DNA of 5,931 nucleotides from Candidatus Firestoneibacteriota bacterium (GCA_043822305.1 JBDRBU010000125.1:1-5931), one strand, 5' to 3'; positions 1 through 5,931 are shown, counted from the first letter of the stretch. Made by a program: numbers and translations. The notes: generated from the letters alone by a model not told the origin.

Positions 1-34
1 TTACTTTAATTTTACTTTTATCAAAATTAACCAT
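1..34 (-). CDS. 5' end of a divergently transcribed gene (MVNFDKSKIKV..., runs off the window); product unknown
   Basis: Minus-strand ATG at 34..32, preceded by a perfect Shine-Dalgarno AGGAGGT (47..41) with a 6-nt spacer; the frame stays open to the window edge. Only 11 codons are visible. Confidence 0.7.
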   Translation of the reverse strand, partial: MVNFDKSKIKV

Positions 35-69
35 TTGGTAACCTCCTTTAAAAGGTATAAACTTTTTCC

Positions 70-98
70 TTTACATATAGGTTACCATATTATATACT
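70..98 (+). promoter_or_regulatory. candidate sigma70/sigmaA promoter (TTTACA-17-TATACT)
   Basis: TTTACA at 70-75 and TATACT at 93-98 are each 5/6 to consensus with a 17-nt spacer. The region is very AT-rich, so a chance match is possible. Confidence 0.4.
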
Positions 99-120
99 AT
101 ATATAATAAAAAATATTACA

Positions 121-149
121 TTAAACTTGAGGAAGTCTCTAATTATAAT
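121..149 (+). promoter_or_regulatory. alternative candidate promoter directly upstream of the leader RNA
   Basis: Perfect TATAAT at 144-149, which would put the TSS near 156, just before the aptamer. The -35 at 17-nt spacing is weak (TTAAAC, 121-126). Confidence 0.4.
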
Positions 150-162
150 ACATAGTAGATTT

Positions 163-220
163 GGGTCCTGAAGTTATATATAAACCTTCAGGAGGGGCAT
201 CATAGATGGTCGGGCCGCCA
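163..220 (+). ncRNA. putative alkali-cation riboswitch aptamer, nhaA-I motif-like (Li+-I / Na+-II classes)
   Basis: GC-rich island in an AT-rich leader. It reads GGGU, then a perfect 8-bp stem TCCTGAAG(166-173)/CTTCAGGA(186-193), GGGG, a small hairpin CATC(198-201)/GATG(205-208), then GGTCGGGCCGCC (208-219). That tail matches my recollection of the nhaA-I consensus 3' end. It overlaps a terminator, and the operon contains a DUF1646 gene, a known association of Na+-sensing riboswitches. Class assignment is from memory. Confidence 0.7.
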
Positions 221-253
221 TCCAATTAAATGATTGGGTGGCGGTTTTTATTT
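214..253 (+). terminator. intrinsic terminator/attenuator (riboswitch expression platform)
   Basis: 13-bp stem GCCGCCATCCAAT(214-226)/ATTGGGTGGCGGT(233-245) with two G-U pairs and a 6-nt loop, followed by TTTTATTT (246-253), immediately before the RBS AGGAGG (254-259). Confidence 0.9.
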
Positions 254-263
254 AGGAGGATTA

Positions 264-1913
264 TTGAAGAGCGTTAGAATTATAAAAGACAAAATTATAC
301 TGGGTGCAACTATAGGTAATTGTGTTCATGTAGCGGGTATATTAAATTTTTTACAGCTGGCTGAAACTGAAGGCTGTAAAACTATATTTTTAGGCAATGC
401 TATTACTATTAATAATTTAATTATTTCAATAAAGAAGATAAAACCCGATATTGTTGCTATAAGTTATCGGTTGACCCCTGAATCAGCTCAAAAGATATTT
501 AATGAATTAAAAAAGAAGGCAAAAGGACTAAAAACAGAATTTATTTTTGGTGGTACTAAGCCTGTTGCAGAAATAGCAGCAAAAACTGGTATATTTTCTA
601 AAGTTTTTACAGGTGAAGAATCAATTCAGGAGATAAAAAATTATTTAAGAGGAGTTAAAGATGACAAAAAAGGTAAATATTTTGCTGACAATCTTGTAGA
701 CAGAATAAACGCGTTATATCCGTATCCATTGATTAGACATCATTATGGCAGACCTACTTTGAAAGAAACAATAAAGGGCGCAAAGTTAATAGCTGAGTCA
801 AAAGCATTGGATATATTGTCTCTTGGTCCTGATCAAAATGCACAGGAGCATTTTTTTCATCCTGAAGAAATGGATAAGAAACAAGATGGAGCAGGCGGAG
901 TACCGTTAAGAAAACCAGAAGATTTAAAAGCGATATATAAAGCAAGCAGATGTGGAAATTTTCCTTTAATTCGTTGTTATGCAGGAACAACAGATTTGAT
1001 TAAGTGGGCGGAAATGTCAGTTAAAACTATTCATAATGCATGGGGAGCAATACCGTTATGTTGGTACAGTGTTTTAGATGGAAGATCAGAAAGGAGTTTG
1101 GAAGAAACAATAAGAGAAAATCAAGATGCTATAAAATGGTATGCGAGAAGAAAAATGCCAGTGGAGGTAAATGAATCTCATCAATGGAGTTTAAGAGATG
1201 CGCATGACAGTTTAGCAGTGGCCATGGCGTTTCTGGCTGCATATAGTGCCAGGGCATTAGGTGTAAAACATTATGTTTCTCAGTATATGTTTAATACCCC
1301 TCCAGGAACTTCTCCCAAAATGGATTTAGCAAAGATGTTAGCAAAAAAAGAAATGATAGAAAGTTTACAAGATAAAAATTTCAAGGTTTTTACCCAAGTC
1401 AGGGCAGGTTTAAGCAGTTTTTCTTCTGATATGGATATAGCTAAAGGACAGTTGTCTGCTTCTGCTGTATTAAGTTTAACGTTAAAACCTCATATATTAC
1501 ATGTTGTTGGTTTTAGTGAAGGAGATCATGCTGTTAAATCAGAAGAATTAATTGAAAGCTGTAAAATAATTCATGGAGTTTTAAAAAACTCTCTTTATGA
1601 TTTGCCTGATATGAAATTAGACCCTCAAGTTCAAAAAAGAAAAAAGGAATTAATAAAGGAAGCTAAAATTTTGTTAAAAGCAATAGCAAGTTTAAAAATG
1701 ACAGAAAAAGGAGATCCTCTAACAAATCCGAGAATTATTGCAAAAGCTATAAAGTTTGGGCTATTAGATGCTCCGCATTTAAAAGGTAATAAAGTGGCTA
1801 AAGGAGAAATTGCAACAAAAATAGTTAACGGTAAATGTGTTGCAATAAATATATTAACGGGTAAAATATTGAACGAAGCAGAACGTATAAAGAAAATAAT
1901 AGAGGAGAATTAG
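264..1913 (+). CDS. cobalamin (B12)-binding domain protein; probable single-chain AdoCbl-dependent mutase-like enzyme (N-terminal B12 Rossmann domain plus C-terminal glutamate-mutase-E-like barrel), ~549 aa
   Basis: N-terminal B12-binding motifs GNCVHVAG (DxHxxG-like), VAISYRL (SxL) and FIFGGT (GG). C-terminal segments LSLGPDQ, GGVP, CYAGTTD, PVEVNE, ARALGVK and FGLLDAP resemble glutamate mutase E subunit segments in the same order. Start moved to TTG 264 because RBS AGGAGG is at 254-259 and the ORF-track start 234 lies inside the terminator stem. Confidence 0.8.
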   Translation: MKSVRIIKDKIILGATIGNCVHVAGILNFLQLAETEGCKTIFLGNAITINNLIISIKKIKPDIVAISYRLTPESAQKIFNELKKKAKGLKTEFIFGGTKPVAEIAAKTGIFSKVFTGEESIQEIKNYLRGVKDDKKGKYFADNLVDRINALYPYPLIRHHYGRPTLKETIKGAKLIAESKALDILSLGPDQNAQEHFFHPEEMDKKQDGAGGVPLRKPEDLKAIYKASRCGNFPLIRCYAGTTDLIKWAEMSVKTIHNAWGAIPLCWYSVLDGRSERSLEETIRENQDAIKWYARRKMPVEVNESHQWSLRDAHDSLAVAMAFLAAYSARALGVKHYVSQYMFNTPPGTSPKMDLAKMLAKKEMIESLQDKNFKVFTQVRAGLSSFSSDMDIAKGQLSASAVLSLTLKPHILHVVGFSEGDHAVKSEELIESCKIIHGVLKNSLYDLPDMKLDPQVQKRKKELIKEAKILLKAIASLKMTEKGDPLTNPRIIAKAIKFGLLDAPHLKGNKVAKGEIATKIVNGKCVAINILTGKILNEAERIKKIIEEN

Positions 1914-1919
1914 CTTAAA

Positions 1920-3383
1920 ATGTGCGGAATAGTTGCTATACAAGGAAAACATACGGAAAAAGAATTGCATGAGATGGTCAAGATACTAAGGCATCGTGGA
2001 CCTGATGATAAAGGATTTTTTACAAAGGGAAATATTTCGCTTGGACAAACCCGCCTTTCTATTATAGATGTTGCAGGAGGACATCAGCCAATTTTCAACG
2101 AAGATAAAACCAAATGTATTGTTTTTAACGGGGAAATTTATAATTTTAGAATTTTAAAAGAACAATTAAAAAGAATACATAAGTTTTCTACAAAGACCGA
2201 TACTGAAATTATATTACATCTTTATGAAGAAGATGGTCCTGAATGTATTAAAAAGTTGGACGGAATGTTTACTTTTGCAATTTATGACAACGGTAAATTA
2301 TTTATAGGAAGGGATAGATTAGGGATTAAACCATTGTATTATGGTACCAAGGATAAAACAGTATATTTTGCATCTGAATTGAAAGCACTACTTCATTGTA
2401 GTTATATAACAACTTTTTTACCGGGATATTATTATACTTCCGATAAAGGTTGCGTAAAATATTATGAAATTCCTAAAGGTGTTTCAATCGGGACTTCGGA
2501 AGGAAATATCTTGAAAATGATAGAATCTCTATTAATTAAGGCGGTAGAAAAAAGATTAATGTCAGATGTTCCTGTCGGAGTATTTTTAAGTGGTGGGATT
2601 GATAGCAGTATAATTGCTGCGATTATGAGAAAAAGAATTCCCGGACTTCATTCTTTTTCTGTTGGAATGAAAGGTTCTAAGGATTTAGAGTATGCAAGAG
2701 AAGTCGCAAAGTTCCTTGACTTAAAACATTATGAGCTTGTTTATACTGTAGATGAGATGATTTTTGCATTGCCGGAAATAATTTATTACCTTGAATCATA
2801 TGATGCTCCTTTAGTTAGGAGTGCAATACCGTGTTATTTTGTATCTAAATTAGCACATCAACATGTTAAAGTAGTGTTAACAGGGGAAGGAGCAGATGAG
2901 TTATTCAGCGGTTATAAATACTTAAGTGAAATTAGGGACGAAAAAGCTCTTTTTGACGAACTTTTTAGAATAACTTATAACTTGCATAATACAAACCTTC
3001 AACGAGTTGATAGACTTACAATGGCTAATTCAGTTGAAGGCAGGGTGCCTTTTCTTGATATAGAATTTCTTACTTATATTTTTAGTATACCTGTTAAATT
3101 AAAATATAGTCATGAAAATCAGGAAAAAAGACTTTTAAGGGAAGCTTTTAAAGAATATTTACCAACCTCAATTGTAAACCGTCCAAAACAAAAGTTTTCA
3201 GATGGAGCAGGCTCGATGGAGGTTTTTAAAAAGATTGCGGAGGATCAAATAACTGATGATGATTTTAGAAAAGAGAATAATAATAAAGCAAGAACCAAGG
3301 AAGAATTGTTTTACTATAGAATTTTCAAAAAATTCTATCCTGATTCAATACTAAATTGTATAGGAAAAACAGAGGTGTTTTAA
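1920..3383 (+). CDS. asnB: asparagine synthetase B family glutamine-hydrolysing amidotransferase (487 aa)
   Basis: Ntn nucleophile MCGI, plus RGPD, RLSIID, FNGEIYN, PP-loop LSGGIDSS, GEGADELF and EGRVPFLD; GAGGAG at 1902-1907. The family is certain, but the physiological substrate is not. Confidence 0.93.
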   Translation: MCGIVAIQGKHTEKELHEMVKILRHRGPDDKGFFTKGNISLGQTRLSIIDVAGGHQPIFNEDKTKCIVFNGEIYNFRILKEQLKRIHKFSTKTDTEIILHLYEEDGPECIKKLDGMFTFAIYDNGKLFIGRDRLGIKPLYYGTKDKTVYFASELKALLHCSYITTFLPGYYYTSDKGCVKYYEIPKGVSIGTSEGNILKMIESLLIKAVEKRLMSDVPVGVFLSGGIDSSIIAAIMRKRIPGLHSFSVGMKGSKDLEYAREVAKFLDLKHYELVYTVDEMIFALPEIIYYLESYDAPLVRSAIPCYFVSKLAHQHVKVVLTGEGADELFSGYKYLSEIRDEKALFDELFRITYNLHNTNLQRVDRLTMANSVEGRVPFLDIEFLTYIFSIPVKLKYSHENQEKRLLREAFKEYLPTSIVNRPKQKFSDGAGSMEVFKKIAEDQITDDDFRKENNNKARTKEELFYYRIFKKFYPDSILNCIGKTEVF

Positions 3384-4528
3384 TGGCATATACAAAAGAT
3401 CAAAAACTTCAAAATTTCATTAAAAAAGTATCTGAAAAGGGCAAAACGATAAAATTCTGTGTTTTAGGTGCCGGGCATGGGGGACTTGCTATGGCGGGCC
3501 ATTTGGCAATAATGGGTTTTAGTGTTAATCTTTATAATAGAAGCGATGAAAGATTAAATGCAGTAAGATGGCATGGTGGGATTAAAGTGAAGGGTGAAGT
3601 CGAGGGGTTTGGTAAGATAGACTTGGCTACTTCTGATATAAAAGAAGCAGTAAAAGATGTTGATGTTTTAATGATTGCAGCTCCAGCGACAGCACATCGT
3701 TTTATTGCCGAAGGTGTAGCCCCGCATTTAAAAGACGGACAGATTATAATTTTAAATCCGGGAAGGACCGGCGGAACACTTGAATTTAGGAAAGTATTAA
3801 ATGATATGCAAGTTAAAACATCAGTGATCTTAGGAGAAGCACAAACTTTTATATATGCTTCAAGAGCAGTTTCTCGAGCAGAAGCGTATATTTTTACCAT
3901 TAAGAATGCTGTAGCAATTGCTACATTACCCGCATACTGGATTCCGGATGTTCTTTCCGTTTTAAAACAAGCATATCCGCAGTTTGTTGCAGGTGATAAT
4001 ATTCTAAAAACAAGCCTTGATAATGTTGGTGCTGTATTTCATCCTGCTTTAACTATTCTTAATGCGGGATGGATTGAAGAAACACACGGGAATTTTGATT
4101 ATTATTTACAGGGGGTTAGTCCTTCTGTTTCCAAAATATTGGAAGATATTGATAAGGAAAGAATATTAGTAGCTGAAAAATTAGGGATTAGAGTTCCTAC
4201 TGCAAGGGAATGGCTTTACTTGACTTATGATTCGGTAGGTAAAGATTTACATGAAGCAATACATGATACACCGGGTTATAGAGGTATAAAAGCACCAGAT
4301 AATATTAATCACAGATACATTTTCGAAGATGTTCCAATGAGTTTGGTGCCAATATCCTCAATAGGAGATATGTTAGGAGTTCCGACTCCAACAATAAAAT
4401 CTATTATATATTTTGCTTCTATTATGCATGGAGTTAATTACTGTAAAGAAGGAAGGACAGTAGAGAAGTTAGGGATAGCGGGATTAACTGTAAAAGAAAT
4501 AAGGCAGTTAGTTGTTGGAATAGAGTAA
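3383..4528 (+). CDS. NAD/NADP-dependent opine (octopine/nopaline) dehydrogenase family protein (~381 aa)
   Basis: Rossmann motif VLGAGHGG, then LNPGRTGG, NVGAVFHP (catalytic His position) and RYIFEDVP (catalytic Asp position), as in Arthrobacter opine dehydrogenase-like proteins. Start set at ATG 3383 (RBS GAGGTG 3373-3378; TAATG overlap with the asnB stop). Confidence 0.9.
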   Translation: MAYTKDQKLQNFIKKVSEKGKTIKFCVLGAGHGGLAMAGHLAIMGFSVNLYNRSDERLNAVRWHGGIKVKGEVEGFGKIDLATSDIKEAVKDVDVLMIAAPATAHRFIAEGVAPHLKDGQIIILNPGRTGGTLEFRKVLNDMQVKTSVILGEAQTFIYASRAVSRAEAYIFTIKNAVAIATLPAYWIPDVLSVLKQAYPQFVAGDNILKTSLDNVGAVFHPALTILNAGWIEETHGNFDYYLQGVSPSVSKILEDIDKERILVAEKLGIRVPTAREWLYLTYDSVGKDLHEAIHDTPGYRGIKAPDNINHRYIFEDVPMSLVPISSIGDMLGVPTPTIKSIIYFASIMHGVNYCKEGRTVEKLGIAGLTVKEIRQLVVGIE

Positions 4529-4546
4529 AAAAAGGAGGAAAAAGTT

Positions 4547-5248
4547 ATGAATATACAATTAACAGAGTTTAATTTATTATGGGAAAAGTTAGTTGAATAT
4601 TTTCCAAAAGTTGCAATAGGCTTAATTCTTTTCAGTATGGGTTTAGTTTTAGCAATTTTTTTAAGATTACTTGTTACAAAGTTGCTTGAATTGATAAGAT
4701 TTAATACTTTAAGCGATAAAACTGGAGTTTCAGAATTCTTAAGAAAAGGTCAGATTAATTATACACCTTCAAAACTTATAGGAAATATAATATTTTGGGC
4801 AATAATTATATTAATATTGTTTTTTATTGCAGATATATCAGGTATAAAGATATTAGGTCCTATGGTTGAAAAGATCGCAAATAATTTTCCAAACATTTTT
4901 GGTACAGTTATAACTTTAATTATTGGGAGTTTAATTGTAATATTTATTGGCAACTTTGTTCAGACAATAGCAAATAATGCTGCTTTTCCGCATGCTAATC
5001 TTTTATCCAGGGCAATAAAGTGGATAGGTATAATATTTGTTTTAATTCTTTCATTTGAAAATTTCAATATTGGATCTAAAACACTAGGGTCAACATTTCT
5101 TATAATTTTGGCAGCAATAGCTTTTGGAATTTCACTGGCATTTGGTATTGGCTGTAAAGACATTGCAAAAGATATAATGGAAAAATTTATACGAAATCTT
5201 GAGGAAAAAAGCAAAAAAGGACCTAAAGGTCCTGATTTAGAAGGTTAA
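4547..5248 (+). CDS. TM_helix-repeat integral membrane protein (CmpX-like / small-conductance mechanosensitive channel-associated), 233 aa
   Basis: RBS AGGAGG at 4533-4538; about 5 hydrophobic segments. Two copies of the TM_helix pattern (LVEYFPKVAIGLILFSMG; IANNFPNIFGTVITLIIG) and a C-terminal LAFGIGCKDIA resembling the LAFGLGGRD motif. No cytoplasmic MscS cage domain. Confidence 0.75.
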   Translation: MNIQLTEFNLLWEKLVEYFPKVAIGLILFSMGLVLAIFLRLLVTKLLELIRFNTLSDKTGVSEFLRKGQINYTPSKLIGNIIFWAIIILILFFIADISGIKILGPMVEKIANNFPNIFGTVITLIIGSLIVIFIGNFVQTIANNAAFPHANLLSRAIKWIGIIFVLILSFENFNIGSKTLGSTFLIILAAIAFGISLAFGIGCKDIAKDIMEKFIRNLEEKSKKGPKGPDLEG

Positions 5249-5263
5249 TCATAAAGGAGAAAA

Positions 5264-5347
5264 ATGGCTGAATATATCCTTTTAGGGATAATGTTTGCAA
5301 TAGCGGTTGTTATGTTTATTGCCATAAAAAGAAGCGAGAAAAAGTAA
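5264..5347 (+). CDS. small single-pass membrane peptide, 27 aa (MAEYILLGIMFAIAVVMFIAIKRSEKK); absent from the ORF track
   Basis: AAGGAG at 5254-5259, ATG 5264, TAA 5345-5347. A 17-residue uninterrupted hydrophobic stretch is followed by a basic tail, and the ORF fills the gap between two operon genes. Confidence 0.7.
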   Translation: MAEYILLGIMFAIAVVMFIAIKRSEKK

Positions 5348-5387
5348 AACACAAATATTATCTTGTAAAAAAGGGGCATAATCCATA

Positions 5388-5789
5388 ATGGTTATATGGC
5401 TATTAGTACTATTATTATCAATCTTTATCCTTCCATTTTTATATAAAAAGATAGAAAAAGAATTAGAAATATTTCTTTTTTTAATGGGAATTCTTTCTCT
5501 AACTATTACTTCTCAATGGAGCTTGCATTTAATACAAGAAAGCCTAATAGAGCCAATAAAAATTACTTTAACAGTTTTTATAGCAGGAATATTATTCAAA
5601 CTAGTTCAAAAACCACTTGACGAGAATCTAAATATTATAGTTAAAAAATTAGGAATGAAATATTTTATATTTTTACTTGTGGCGGGCTTAGGATTATTTT
5701 CGAGTGTAATAACTGCAATAATATCGGCTTTAATCTTAGTCGAAATAATAAGTTGGTACCGTCCTGAATCTTTGACCTACACATCTTAA
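5388..5789 (+). pseudogene. DUF1646 family membrane protein (putative cation transporter), apparently 3'-truncated
   Basis: Family-typical N-terminus LPF..KKIEKELEIFLFLMG, EPIKIT..V..AG and GLFSSVITAIISALILVEII. Resemblance ends at VEIIS (~5753), followed by an unrelated tail WYRPESLTYTS*. It is 133 aa against roughly 330-350 aa as I recall for intact members. Confidence 0.7.
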
Positions 5790-5931
5790 CCAATTCAAGC
5801 CCTCTTTCTATTGTAGCATATCTCATTTTTTTCAAATTGTCAAGAACTTTTTTCTTTTTCTTTTTTACTTTTTTTGTTTTTATTAGCCATCCTTACTAAA
5901 ATTTGCCCTCAAATTGCCCTTTAAACCAACG
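5755..5931. mobile_element. possible end of an inserted element (or assembly junction) interrupting the DUF1646 gene
   Basis: Abrupt loss of coding resemblance and a switch to a T/C-rich + strand. The segment begins GGTACCGTCCTGAATCTTTGACCTACAC, reminiscent of IS terminal inverted repeats. No transposase or partner repeat is visible in the window. Confidence 0.35.
5810..5843 (-). promoter_or_regulatory. candidate minus-strand promoter pointing back into the operon
   Basis: Perfect TTGACA (5843..5838), 17-nt spacer, TATGCT (5820..5815), plus an overlapping extended -10 TGcTACAAT (5818..5810). Confidence 0.5.

Follow-up and report, generated by a model that had tools for sequence, protein, structure and literature searches.

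A probable opine-derived solute operon with a cobalamin mutase-like protein behind an nhaA-I-class riboswitch in a Candidatus Firestoneibacteriota bacterium

The nearest described system to the one analyzed here is a predicted B12-dependent protein family with an N-terminal B12-binding domain, reported from 11 genomes, always beside a pfam02317 gene and in several organisms near an asparagine synthase or D-Ala-D-Ala ligase gene, according to the consulted parts of Zhang et al. (2009; PMC2667541). By that description alone, it is the same family as the product of open reading frame (ORF) 1 in a 5,931-nt stretch of DNA from a Candidatus Firestoneibacteriota bacterium (GCA_043822305.1 JBDRBU010000125.1:1-5931; hereafter the window), where genes for an adenosylcobalamin (AdoCbl) mutase-like protein (ORF1), an AsnB-family enzyme (ORF2) and an opine dehydrogenase (ORF3) follow an nhaA-I-class riboswitch. 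The consulted parts of that paper give neither a mechanism nor a role for the family, nor its regulation or the fold of its catalytic portion; the present analysis adds at least 573 GTDB stretches, a glutamate-mutase fold, links to riboswitches and a substrate class. A preliminary description of this DNA had called the enzyme combination undescribed; the linkage turned out to be in print already, while its function is not given in those parts of the 2009 paper. We found no published function for the module in the open literature, most subscription papers and bioRxiv supplements lying outside the search. What is new in the window is that all three enzymes stand together behind a terminator-type nhaA-I switch.

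We consider it probable, with moderate confidence based on sequence and structural models, that this operon encodes an opine-derived compatible-solute pathway in which an opine would be formed, rearranged and optionally amidated. The window is the whole of one contig (C125) of a 2.15-Mb genome in 125 contigs (96.8% complete), and the closest named ORF1 homologue (72%) comes from Candidatus Firestonebacteria. Six ORFs lie on the plus strand at 264 (TTG)-1913, 1920-3383, 3383-4528, 4547-5248, 5264-5347 and 5388-5789, with gaps of 6, -1, 18, 15 and 40 nt, and the sole plus-strand terminator-like site of the window is in the leader (212-247). The co-oriented layout reported earlier, with one leader attenuator and no internal terminator, therefore agrees with our coordinates. 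The families detected by Pfam and NCBIfam were a B12-binding domain, AsnB, Octopine_DH, a mechanosensitive-channel transmembrane (TM) helix and DUF1646, and these matches, together with the fold of ORF1, bear out the earlier assignment of the three enzymes.

The mutase, the opine dehydrogenase and the AsnB-family enzyme

Among 8,000 candidates scored, 5,274 were relatives of ORF1, and at least 573 ORF1-related stretches were confirmed in GTDB; the counts over 80 loci given below refer to the best 80 of these at least 573. They span Bacteroidota (heavily sampled), Ignavibacteria, Aminicenantes, Bacillota, Armatimonadota, one Thermoplasmata archaeon and others. A dehydrogenase gene stands beside the mutase gene in 77 of the 80 loci, and an AsnB homologue is present in 51. 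A second set was taken from Bacillota, where ORF1 occurs in 77 of 401 sampled genomes; it comprises about 7 kb around ORF1 from 40 of those 77 genomes, with large contigs preferred and about 1.5 kb covered downstream. There the dehydrogenase was found at 38 of 40 loci, a D-Ala-D-Ala-ligase-like ATP-grasp gene at 7 and AsnB at 3. The conserved core is the mutase plus the opine dehydrogenase and the ligase is optional, so that the linkage proposed for all three enzymes holds for the pair and only in part for AsnB. Nearer to the host, 60 genomes of relatives gave a strong ORF1 match in three of the same order and a weak match, to the B12 domain only, in two others. One same-order locus (L097) carries an intact run of riboswitch, mutase, asnB, dehydrogenase, TM-helix gene, 27-aa peptide, GGDEF gene and DUF1646 gene. 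A metagenome scan using ORF1 alone returned one distant locus. At six loci, mostly from Aminicenantes (L061, L068, L071, L072, L078 and L079), the dehydrogenase and mutase genes are followed by a TldD/PmbA peptidase pair, with no asnB in place.

ORF3 (3383-4528, plus strand) encodes a 381-aa opine dehydrogenase, which its Pfam match, alignment and specificity residues place in the acidic-amino-acid type. As far as the consulted parts of Telek et al. (2024; PMC10787698) go, the pair Arg111 and Gly198 gives specificity for L-Asp and L-Glu, the tested enzymes favor Asp over Glu and, among keto acids, pyruvate, and Arg35 is a mark of NADPH acceptance. The Arthrobacter opine dehydrogenase (1BG6) aligned with ORF3 over its full length (E 5e-82), and Arg128, Gly216 and Arg53 of ORF3 correspond to its positions 111, 198 and 35, respectively; the GxGxxG motif and the His-Asp dyad (His220, FEDVP motif) are also present. 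Across the 77 linked homologues, Arg128 is found in 72/72, Gly216 in 71/72 and Arg53 in 71/71 of those covered at each position, and the Bacillota dehydrogenases have them in 38/38, 38/38 and 33/37. Since ORF3 has all three residues, the first product would very likely be N-(1-carboxyethyl)-Asp or N-(1-carboxyethyl)-Glu. ORF3 scored below the cut-off of the staphylopine dehydrogenase profile.

ORF1 (264-1913, plus strand) is predicted by Pfam matches and by a structural model (predicted local distance difference test score, pLDDT, 85) to be a single-chain AdoCbl mutase-like protein of 549 aa, in which an N-terminal B12-binding domain (C-x-H22-x-x-G) is fused to a triosephosphate isomerase (TIM) barrel of the glutamate-mutase-E type. 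Both Foldseek and VIA returned glutamate mutase E as the best fold match of the model (VIA: Z 30.7, root-mean-square deviation 3.1, 362 aligned residues, 16% identity), the next VIA matches being the lysine and ornithine aminomutases (Z 25-28) and methylmalonyl-CoA mutase (19). PDB sequence searches with ORF1 matched the B12 domain alone, the Pfam scan gave no match of ORF1 to PF06368, and a profile of close homologues produced no meaningful alignment with GlmE; a broad profile aligned weakly with three true GlmE proteins (probability 52-70%). In this weak alignment, Glu419 falls on GlmE Glu330, the residue that in glutamate mutase binds the adenosyl ribose (consulted parts of PMC4413051 and PMC3958899). 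Glu419 is kept in 35 of 37 distant and all 40 Bacillota sequences, and the cobalt-ligating His22 in 40/40 of the latter. The cobalt loop reads C-x-H in 23/23 close homologues and 36/40 Bacillota sequences; in the broad set, 17 of 37 sequences have D-x-H. The region of GlmE Glu171 aligns with gaps, an invariant Asp272 adjoining the aligned position, and ORF1 has new conserved arginines at 158, 237, 311 and 380. Taken together, the model and alignments suggest AdoCbl-dependent radical isomerization by ORF1, strongly as regards the class of reaction and weakly as regards the substrate, and ORF1 appears to work like glutamate mutase without being one.

Two more specific identities for ORF1 were rejected. 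It is not taken as a true glutamate mutase serving glutamate fermentation: the substrate arginines are replaced, PF06368 does not match, and methylaspartate ammonia-lyase was not found in the host genome (in the 50 other module genomes it occurs in 4, three times beside a separate true glutamate mutase). Nor is it taken as a pyridoxal phosphate (PLP)-dependent aminomutase, since the loop with the PLP-anchoring lysine (Lys629 of ornithine aminomutase) is an insertion not present in the ORF1 profile. A scan of 20 distant or long relatives showed a GlmL/MutL domain in 3, an ATP-grasp domain in 1 and a match to the MutE profile in 2; one ORF1 relative lies above the MutE Pfam cut-off. The GlmL/MutL domain is a C-terminal fusion in a mutase subfamily to which P0149, P0153, P0154 and the matches of about 1240 aa in genomes G234, G193 and G269 belong; G269 has both plain and long mutase copies. 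A further, distant subfamily of 600-630 aa (P0165, P0167, P0172 and similar) has a cobalt loop of the D-x-H form and is about 30% identical. The host genome has a corrinoid adenosyltransferase. In the same genome, ABC-transporter genes stand with a corrinoid adenosyltransferase gene and a partial AsnB-like gene at locus L105 (G000:C7:27000-32501), probably a cobalamin salvage cluster.

ORF2 (1920-3383, plus strand; 487 aa) is an AsnB-family ATP-dependent amide synthetase by its match to the NCBIfam asparagine synthase B profile (579.7 bits, cut-off 499). Its glutaminase domain is intact (Cys2, Asn70-Gly71, Asp94) and its synthetase motifs are present. AsnB homologues were matched at 51 loci and recovered as ORFs for 46 linked copies (one fragment included, one unlinked paralogue excluded), and 39 of these 46 lack the N-terminal Cys and keep the synthetase motifs. 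Because the linked copies have mostly lost the Cys yet retained these motifs, the conserved job would be ATP-dependent amide formation, with glutamine optional. Beta-lactam synthetase is a sequence relative of the linked AsnB proteins, and presumably also lacks the glutaminase Cys. A part in N-acetylglutaminylglutamine amide (NAGGN) synthesis was rejected, as ORF2 scored 285 bits with the NAGGN amidotransferase model TIGR03104, the cut-off of which is 570.1.

The leader riboswitch and the regulation of related loci

The leader contains an nhaA-I-class aptamer at 163-223 on the plus strand (Rfam RF03057, 42 bits, gathering threshold 37, E 5e-6), the only copy in the genome, with pairings P1 (167-173/186-192) and P2 (205-209/218-222) and a loop at 210-217 that begins with U210. 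The DUF1646/Na+-I family (RF03071) gave no match in the window at E<=1. The cation riboswitch proposed in the preliminary description is thus upheld as a cation-type leader, of another class than the DUF1646/Na+-I one. The aptamer overlaps an intrinsic terminator (214-253, plus strand; stem 214-226/233-245, U-rich tail 246-253), whose stem takes the loop and 3′ strand of P2, so that aptamer and terminator are mutually exclusive. As the terminator is also far more stable than P2 (-22.3 vs -5.5 kcal/mol), ligand binding should permit read-through, and the leader RNA is predicted to be an ON switch. A probable -10 box (TATAAT, 144-149, plus strand) lies upstream, and a TATAAT just before the aptamer is also found in L097.

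In the consulted parts of White et al. (2022; PMC9646797), Li+ is the ligand of most nhaA-I RNAs and Na+ that of a terminator-bearing C54 variant (Na+-II), whose response was broadened to Li+, Na+ and NH4+ by a C54U change; terminator variants are placed only in Deltaproteobacteria, and the named target genes include no enzyme such as ORF1, with 171 genes listed as "hypothetical" and 52 as "other". The window has the terminator platform of Na+-II, with the terminator overlapping P2 and laid out as in the tested D. propionicus switch, and the base of its P1 is likewise similar; at the position of the C54 of that tested RNA, however, it has a U (U210). The leader therefore fits neither of the tested types, Li+-I and Na+-II, cleanly. 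Na+ is favored as the ligand, on physiological grounds only.

Among other genomes, an Rfam scan covered 45 of the 80 loci, mostly non-Bacillota and several with little upstream DNA, and found riboswitches before module genes in three, L007, L056 and L029. In L007 and L056, a cyclic di-AMP (c-di-AMP) riboswitch precedes asnB-odh-mutase. In L029, nhaA-I with a terminator precedes odh-mutase-CBS-Na+/H+ exchanger and again a Cys-less asnB; the two switches (L029:6760-13167) are near-identical, and the ligase there appears to be under separate but parallel control. Together with the window and the L097 operon of the same gene run, this distant genome completes the cases of a cation riboswitch before the module, and this regulator is lineage-specific; the co-occurrence with cation riboswitches that the preliminary description had raised as a check was seen in L097 and L029 and nowhere else before the module in the loci scanned. 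A whole-genome nhaA-I search of 50 module genomes gave seven matches in five genomes, two of them before module genes. A match in L077, located after asnB and before other genes, was not counted as module control, and other nhaA-I RNAs in L082, L083 and L084, which precede an OtsAB-like, an MscS and a ClC-like gene, are in line with an osmotic regulon. Na+-I (RF03071) gave no match in the 50 genomes, where many candidates went unscored.

At 21 of the 40 Bacillota loci, the module is preceded by a same-strand c-di-AMP riboswitch, which stands 20 times before odh and once before ATP-grasp-odh-mutase. Module switches make up 22 of the 64 c-di-AMP riboswitch matches in those genomes and are the sole match in eight; this share is far above chance for one operon among thousands, with the proviso that kin genomes are not independent. 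In one case (L171:4249-4638), tandem c-di-AMP riboswitches precede odh-mutase. Osmolyte genes are ON at high Na+ and OFF at high c-di-AMP according to the consulted parts of PMC9337991, and the osmotic role proposed earlier for the operon is accordingly backed by the Bacillota loci. In 28 of the 80 loci, a count made without background control, the neighbors include MscS, amino-acid permease, ClC, CitMHS/ArsB-type, NhaA, OtsAB, TM_helix or DUF1646 genes.

Proposed pathway and alternatives

In the pathway that we propose, a rise in an alkali cation, most likely Na+, would let transcription pass the leader terminator. ORF3 would then join pyruvate and L-Asp or L-Glu, with NAD(P)H, into an N-(1-carboxyethyl) amino acid, a step for which the analogy with characterized dehydrogenases argues strongly. 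ORF1 with AdoCbl would carry out a radical rearrangement of the glutamate-mutase type, as its modeled fold suggests; in the simplest version, the glutamyl skeleton of the opine would become a 3-methylaspartyl skeleton, or ORF1 would act on glutamate before the dehydrogenase, giving the same product. Glutamate mutase splits glutamate into acrylate and a glycyl radical, and an N-alkyl glutamate could be open to the same split. To our knowledge, no B12 enzyme has an N-alkylated amino acid (opine) as its substrate. Optionally, ORF2 would activate a carboxylate with ATP and amidate it, which would reduce the charge and shift the mutase equilibrium; its sequence supports amidation moderately, and an ATP-grasp ligase gene adjoins the mutase-dehydrogenase pair in some other genomes. 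The outcome would be a small opine-derived organic solute that provides osmotic or ionic protection, and for this solute role we regard the support as moderate to strong. Since an aspartate-like skeleton is what the dehydrogenase favors and what AsnB amidates, N-(1-carboxyethyl)-3-methylaspartate and its amide would suit all three enzymes in whichever order the mutase and the dehydrogenase act and are the likeliest product, although this exact structure is put forward tentatively and is on balance doubtful. A broader reading, to which we give somewhat less than an even chance, is that of an osmolyte pathway widespread in anaerobic bacteria and archaea, in which a new class of B12 radical mutase rearranges an opine into an inert branched solute and Na+/Li+ and c-di-AMP riboswitches were recruited independently.

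Several observations weigh against this proposal. Product, activity, transcript and salt response are all predictions from sequence. In the weak profile alignment, Arg66, Arg100 and Arg149 of GlmE, which with Glu171 we take to be the substrate residues of glutamate mutase, are replaced by His160, Gln194 and Tyr239 in ORF1; with these residues lost and the alignment weak, the rearrangement may differ. GlmL/MutL was not found in the host genome. ORF2, lying above the ordinary asparagine synthetase cut-off, could simply make asparagine, and AsnB is missing from 29 of the 80 loci and, within the downstream DNA covered, from 37 of the 40 Bacillota loci. U210 is the Li+-I-type base and the ligand may be Li+, and expression in this genome may have been altered by the mobile element, whose end lies 4 nt upstream of the -10 box. 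Riboswitch-preceded loci were few in the scan of 45, no riboswitch precedes the module in 19 of the 40 Bacillota loci, related genomes in these counts are not independent, and 52 of the 80 loci have no listed ion-related or osmotic neighbor. c-di-AMP riboswitches also control cell-wall genes, in the consulted parts of PMC9337991.

The rebuilt pocket of ORF1 might alternatively reflect a different chemistry with the same osmotic role, in which the mutase would act on N-(1-carboxyethyl)-Asp or -Glu, moving its nitrogen or rearranging the carboxyethyl arm, to give a beta-amino-acid product. This product would be an N-(2-carboxyethyl) compound, or beta-glutamate after reversal of the dehydrogenase, which the AsnB-like enzyme would then amidate or close to a lactam. 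The preference of the tested dehydrogenases for Asp, the place of PLP-dependent aminomutases as the next fold matches, and the loss of the glutaminase Cys from 39 of 46 linked AsnB copies, presumably as in the related beta-lactam synthetase, all agree with such a route, as does the control of beta-glutamate and beta-lysine genes by Na+-I riboswitches (consulted parts of PMC9337991). We nevertheless consider it unlikely, since the known 1,2-amino shifts in this fold require PLP and ORF1 has no PLP-lysine loop, the best fold match is a carbon-skeleton mutase, and the full glutaminase site of ORF2 suits amidation with ammonia better than ring closure.

A catabolic route, with cleavage of an opine from the environment or from storage by the dehydrogenase and entry of the skeleton into fermentation through the mutase, is improbable. 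Opine dehydrogenases are known to run in both directions, glutamate mutase has a part in fermentation, and peptidases or carriers occur near some loci; methylaspartate ammonia-lyase, however, is as rare in module genomes as noted above, no conserved importer was seen among the neighbors, the switches answer to ions or c-di-AMP rather than to a substrate, and the arginine of NADPH acceptance is kept in 71/71 homologues covered in the 77-member set. It is quite improbable that the product is no bulk osmolyte but a chelator of a cation or metal, acting as a Li+/Na+ buffer or an opine-type metallophore, or that it has its function in homeostasis of the cell wall or of pH. A tricarboxylic opine presumably resembles known metallophores, U210 agrees with Li+-I switches, and both the cell-wall genes under c-di-AMP control and the D-Ala-D-Ala-ligase-like gene of 7 Bacillota loci would suit such a function, yet no conserved exporter or metal ABC importer was seen among the neighbors, the staphylopine dehydrogenase profile fell below its cut-off, and both switch types converge on osmotic signals. 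Finally, although methyltransferase corrinoid proteins are the best sequence matches of the N-terminal domain of ORF1, and some databases label it "methionine synthase", methylation of an opine by a corrinoid methyltransferase is scarcely credible, given a barrel like those of glutamate mutase and other AdoCbl isomerases with no methionine synthase barrel among the best 50 VIA rows, the conserved ribose-binding Glu, the GlmL fusions and the relative above the MutE cut-off.

Accessory genes, contig ends and comparison with known systems

Downstream of the enzymes for the proposed solute pathway are three membrane genes that we regard as local ion-handling extras. ORF4 (4547-5248, plus strand) encodes a 233-aa accessory membrane protein matching PF05552 only, with MscS-type conserved TM helices and no channel beta-domain. 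ORF5 (5264-5347, plus strand) encodes a 27-aa single-helix membrane peptide, with a ribosome-binding site and no family match; it ends in a basic tail, and its counterpart has the same place in L097, near 11830-11913 after the TM-helix gene. ORF6 is the interrupted 5′ third of a gene for a DUF1646 protein, a putative cation/H+ antiporter (5388-5752, plus strand; PF07854 positions 3-132 of 347): about 121 of some 343 codons are native, and beyond them the frame stays open in foreign DNA as far as a stop at 5789. The DUF1646 gene placed in the operon by the preliminary description is confirmed as to family, and is truncated by a mobile element at 5753. The rest of it was not found in the assembly; an intact paralogue lies on contig C87 and a full-length 343-aa copy in the L097 operon. 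As partners of the module, the membrane genes did not hold up, and a core role for them was rejected, with TM_helix in 4 and DUF1646 in 1 of 80 loci.

Both contig ends are repeated sequences outside the operon. Positions 1-139 (minus strand) are the end of an insertion-sequence-like element, near-identical to a stretch at 10 other contig ends and sharply bounded at 139, with a probable transposase start inside it: a frame from 34 on the minus strand, preceded by a ribosome-binding site, that leaves the contig leftwards. Counting this one, 11 contig ends carry that end of the element, and a related terminal repeat at about 11 more is its probable other end; the element accounts for many assembly breaks in the host genome. 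Any -35 box for the TATAAT at 144-149 would lie in the element end, and a hybrid or element-borne promoter is possible. A sigma-70-like site (70-98, 10/12) inside the element is directed into the operon; the promoter scan gave 28 sites, vs 27.6 by chance. On the right, 5753-5931 is the sharply bounded end of a second mobile-element-like sequence, which recurs with 100% identity where C91 and C116 end and has an 83% copy in C63.

The mutase family is common in anaerobes, the searchable literature has assigned it no function after the prediction of 2009, and few AdoCbl mutase reactions are known to us. With dehydrogenase substrates known from biocatalysis, a new B12 radical reaction and a compatible solute would be within reach if the proposed pathway is true; the module would then also account for roughly one c-di-AMP riboswitch match in three across the examined Bacillota genomes and give the metagenomic opine dehydrogenases (mODH) of Telek et al. 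(2024) a physiological role. The leader of the window, as a natural terminator-type nhaA-I RNA with U54, is useful for the question of Li+ vs Na+ selectivity.

Compared with glutamate mutase (GlmS/GlmE with GlmL; Clostridium cochlearium, 1CB7/6H9E), ORF1 shares the TIM barrel, the His-on B12 domain, the ribose-binding Glu and, in some relatives, a fused GlmL. It differs in being a single chain with the B12 domain first, in its 16% identity and replaced substrate arginines, in the C-x-H that replaces D-x-H in close homologues, and in having no linkage to methylaspartate ammonia-lyase. ORF3 has in common with mODH and 1BG6 the fold, the His-Asp dyad, the Arg111/Gly198 pair and Arg35, and the mODH supplement sequences look, by eye, like the ORF3 subfamily; those enzymes were studied as biocatalysts, and genome context and physiological role are not given in the consulted parts of PMC10787698. 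The linked AsnB copies retain the residues for ATP-dependent carboxylate activation found in AsnB, NAGGN amidotransferase and beta-lactam synthetase, whereas most of them have lost the glutaminase site. A further parallel would be the solute routes of what we take to be radical S-adenosylmethionine (SAM) aminomutases, in which an amino acid skeleton is likewise rearranged by a radical mechanism into a solute under the same two signals; the ORF1 reaction would differ from them in being cobalamin-based and coupled to an opine step.

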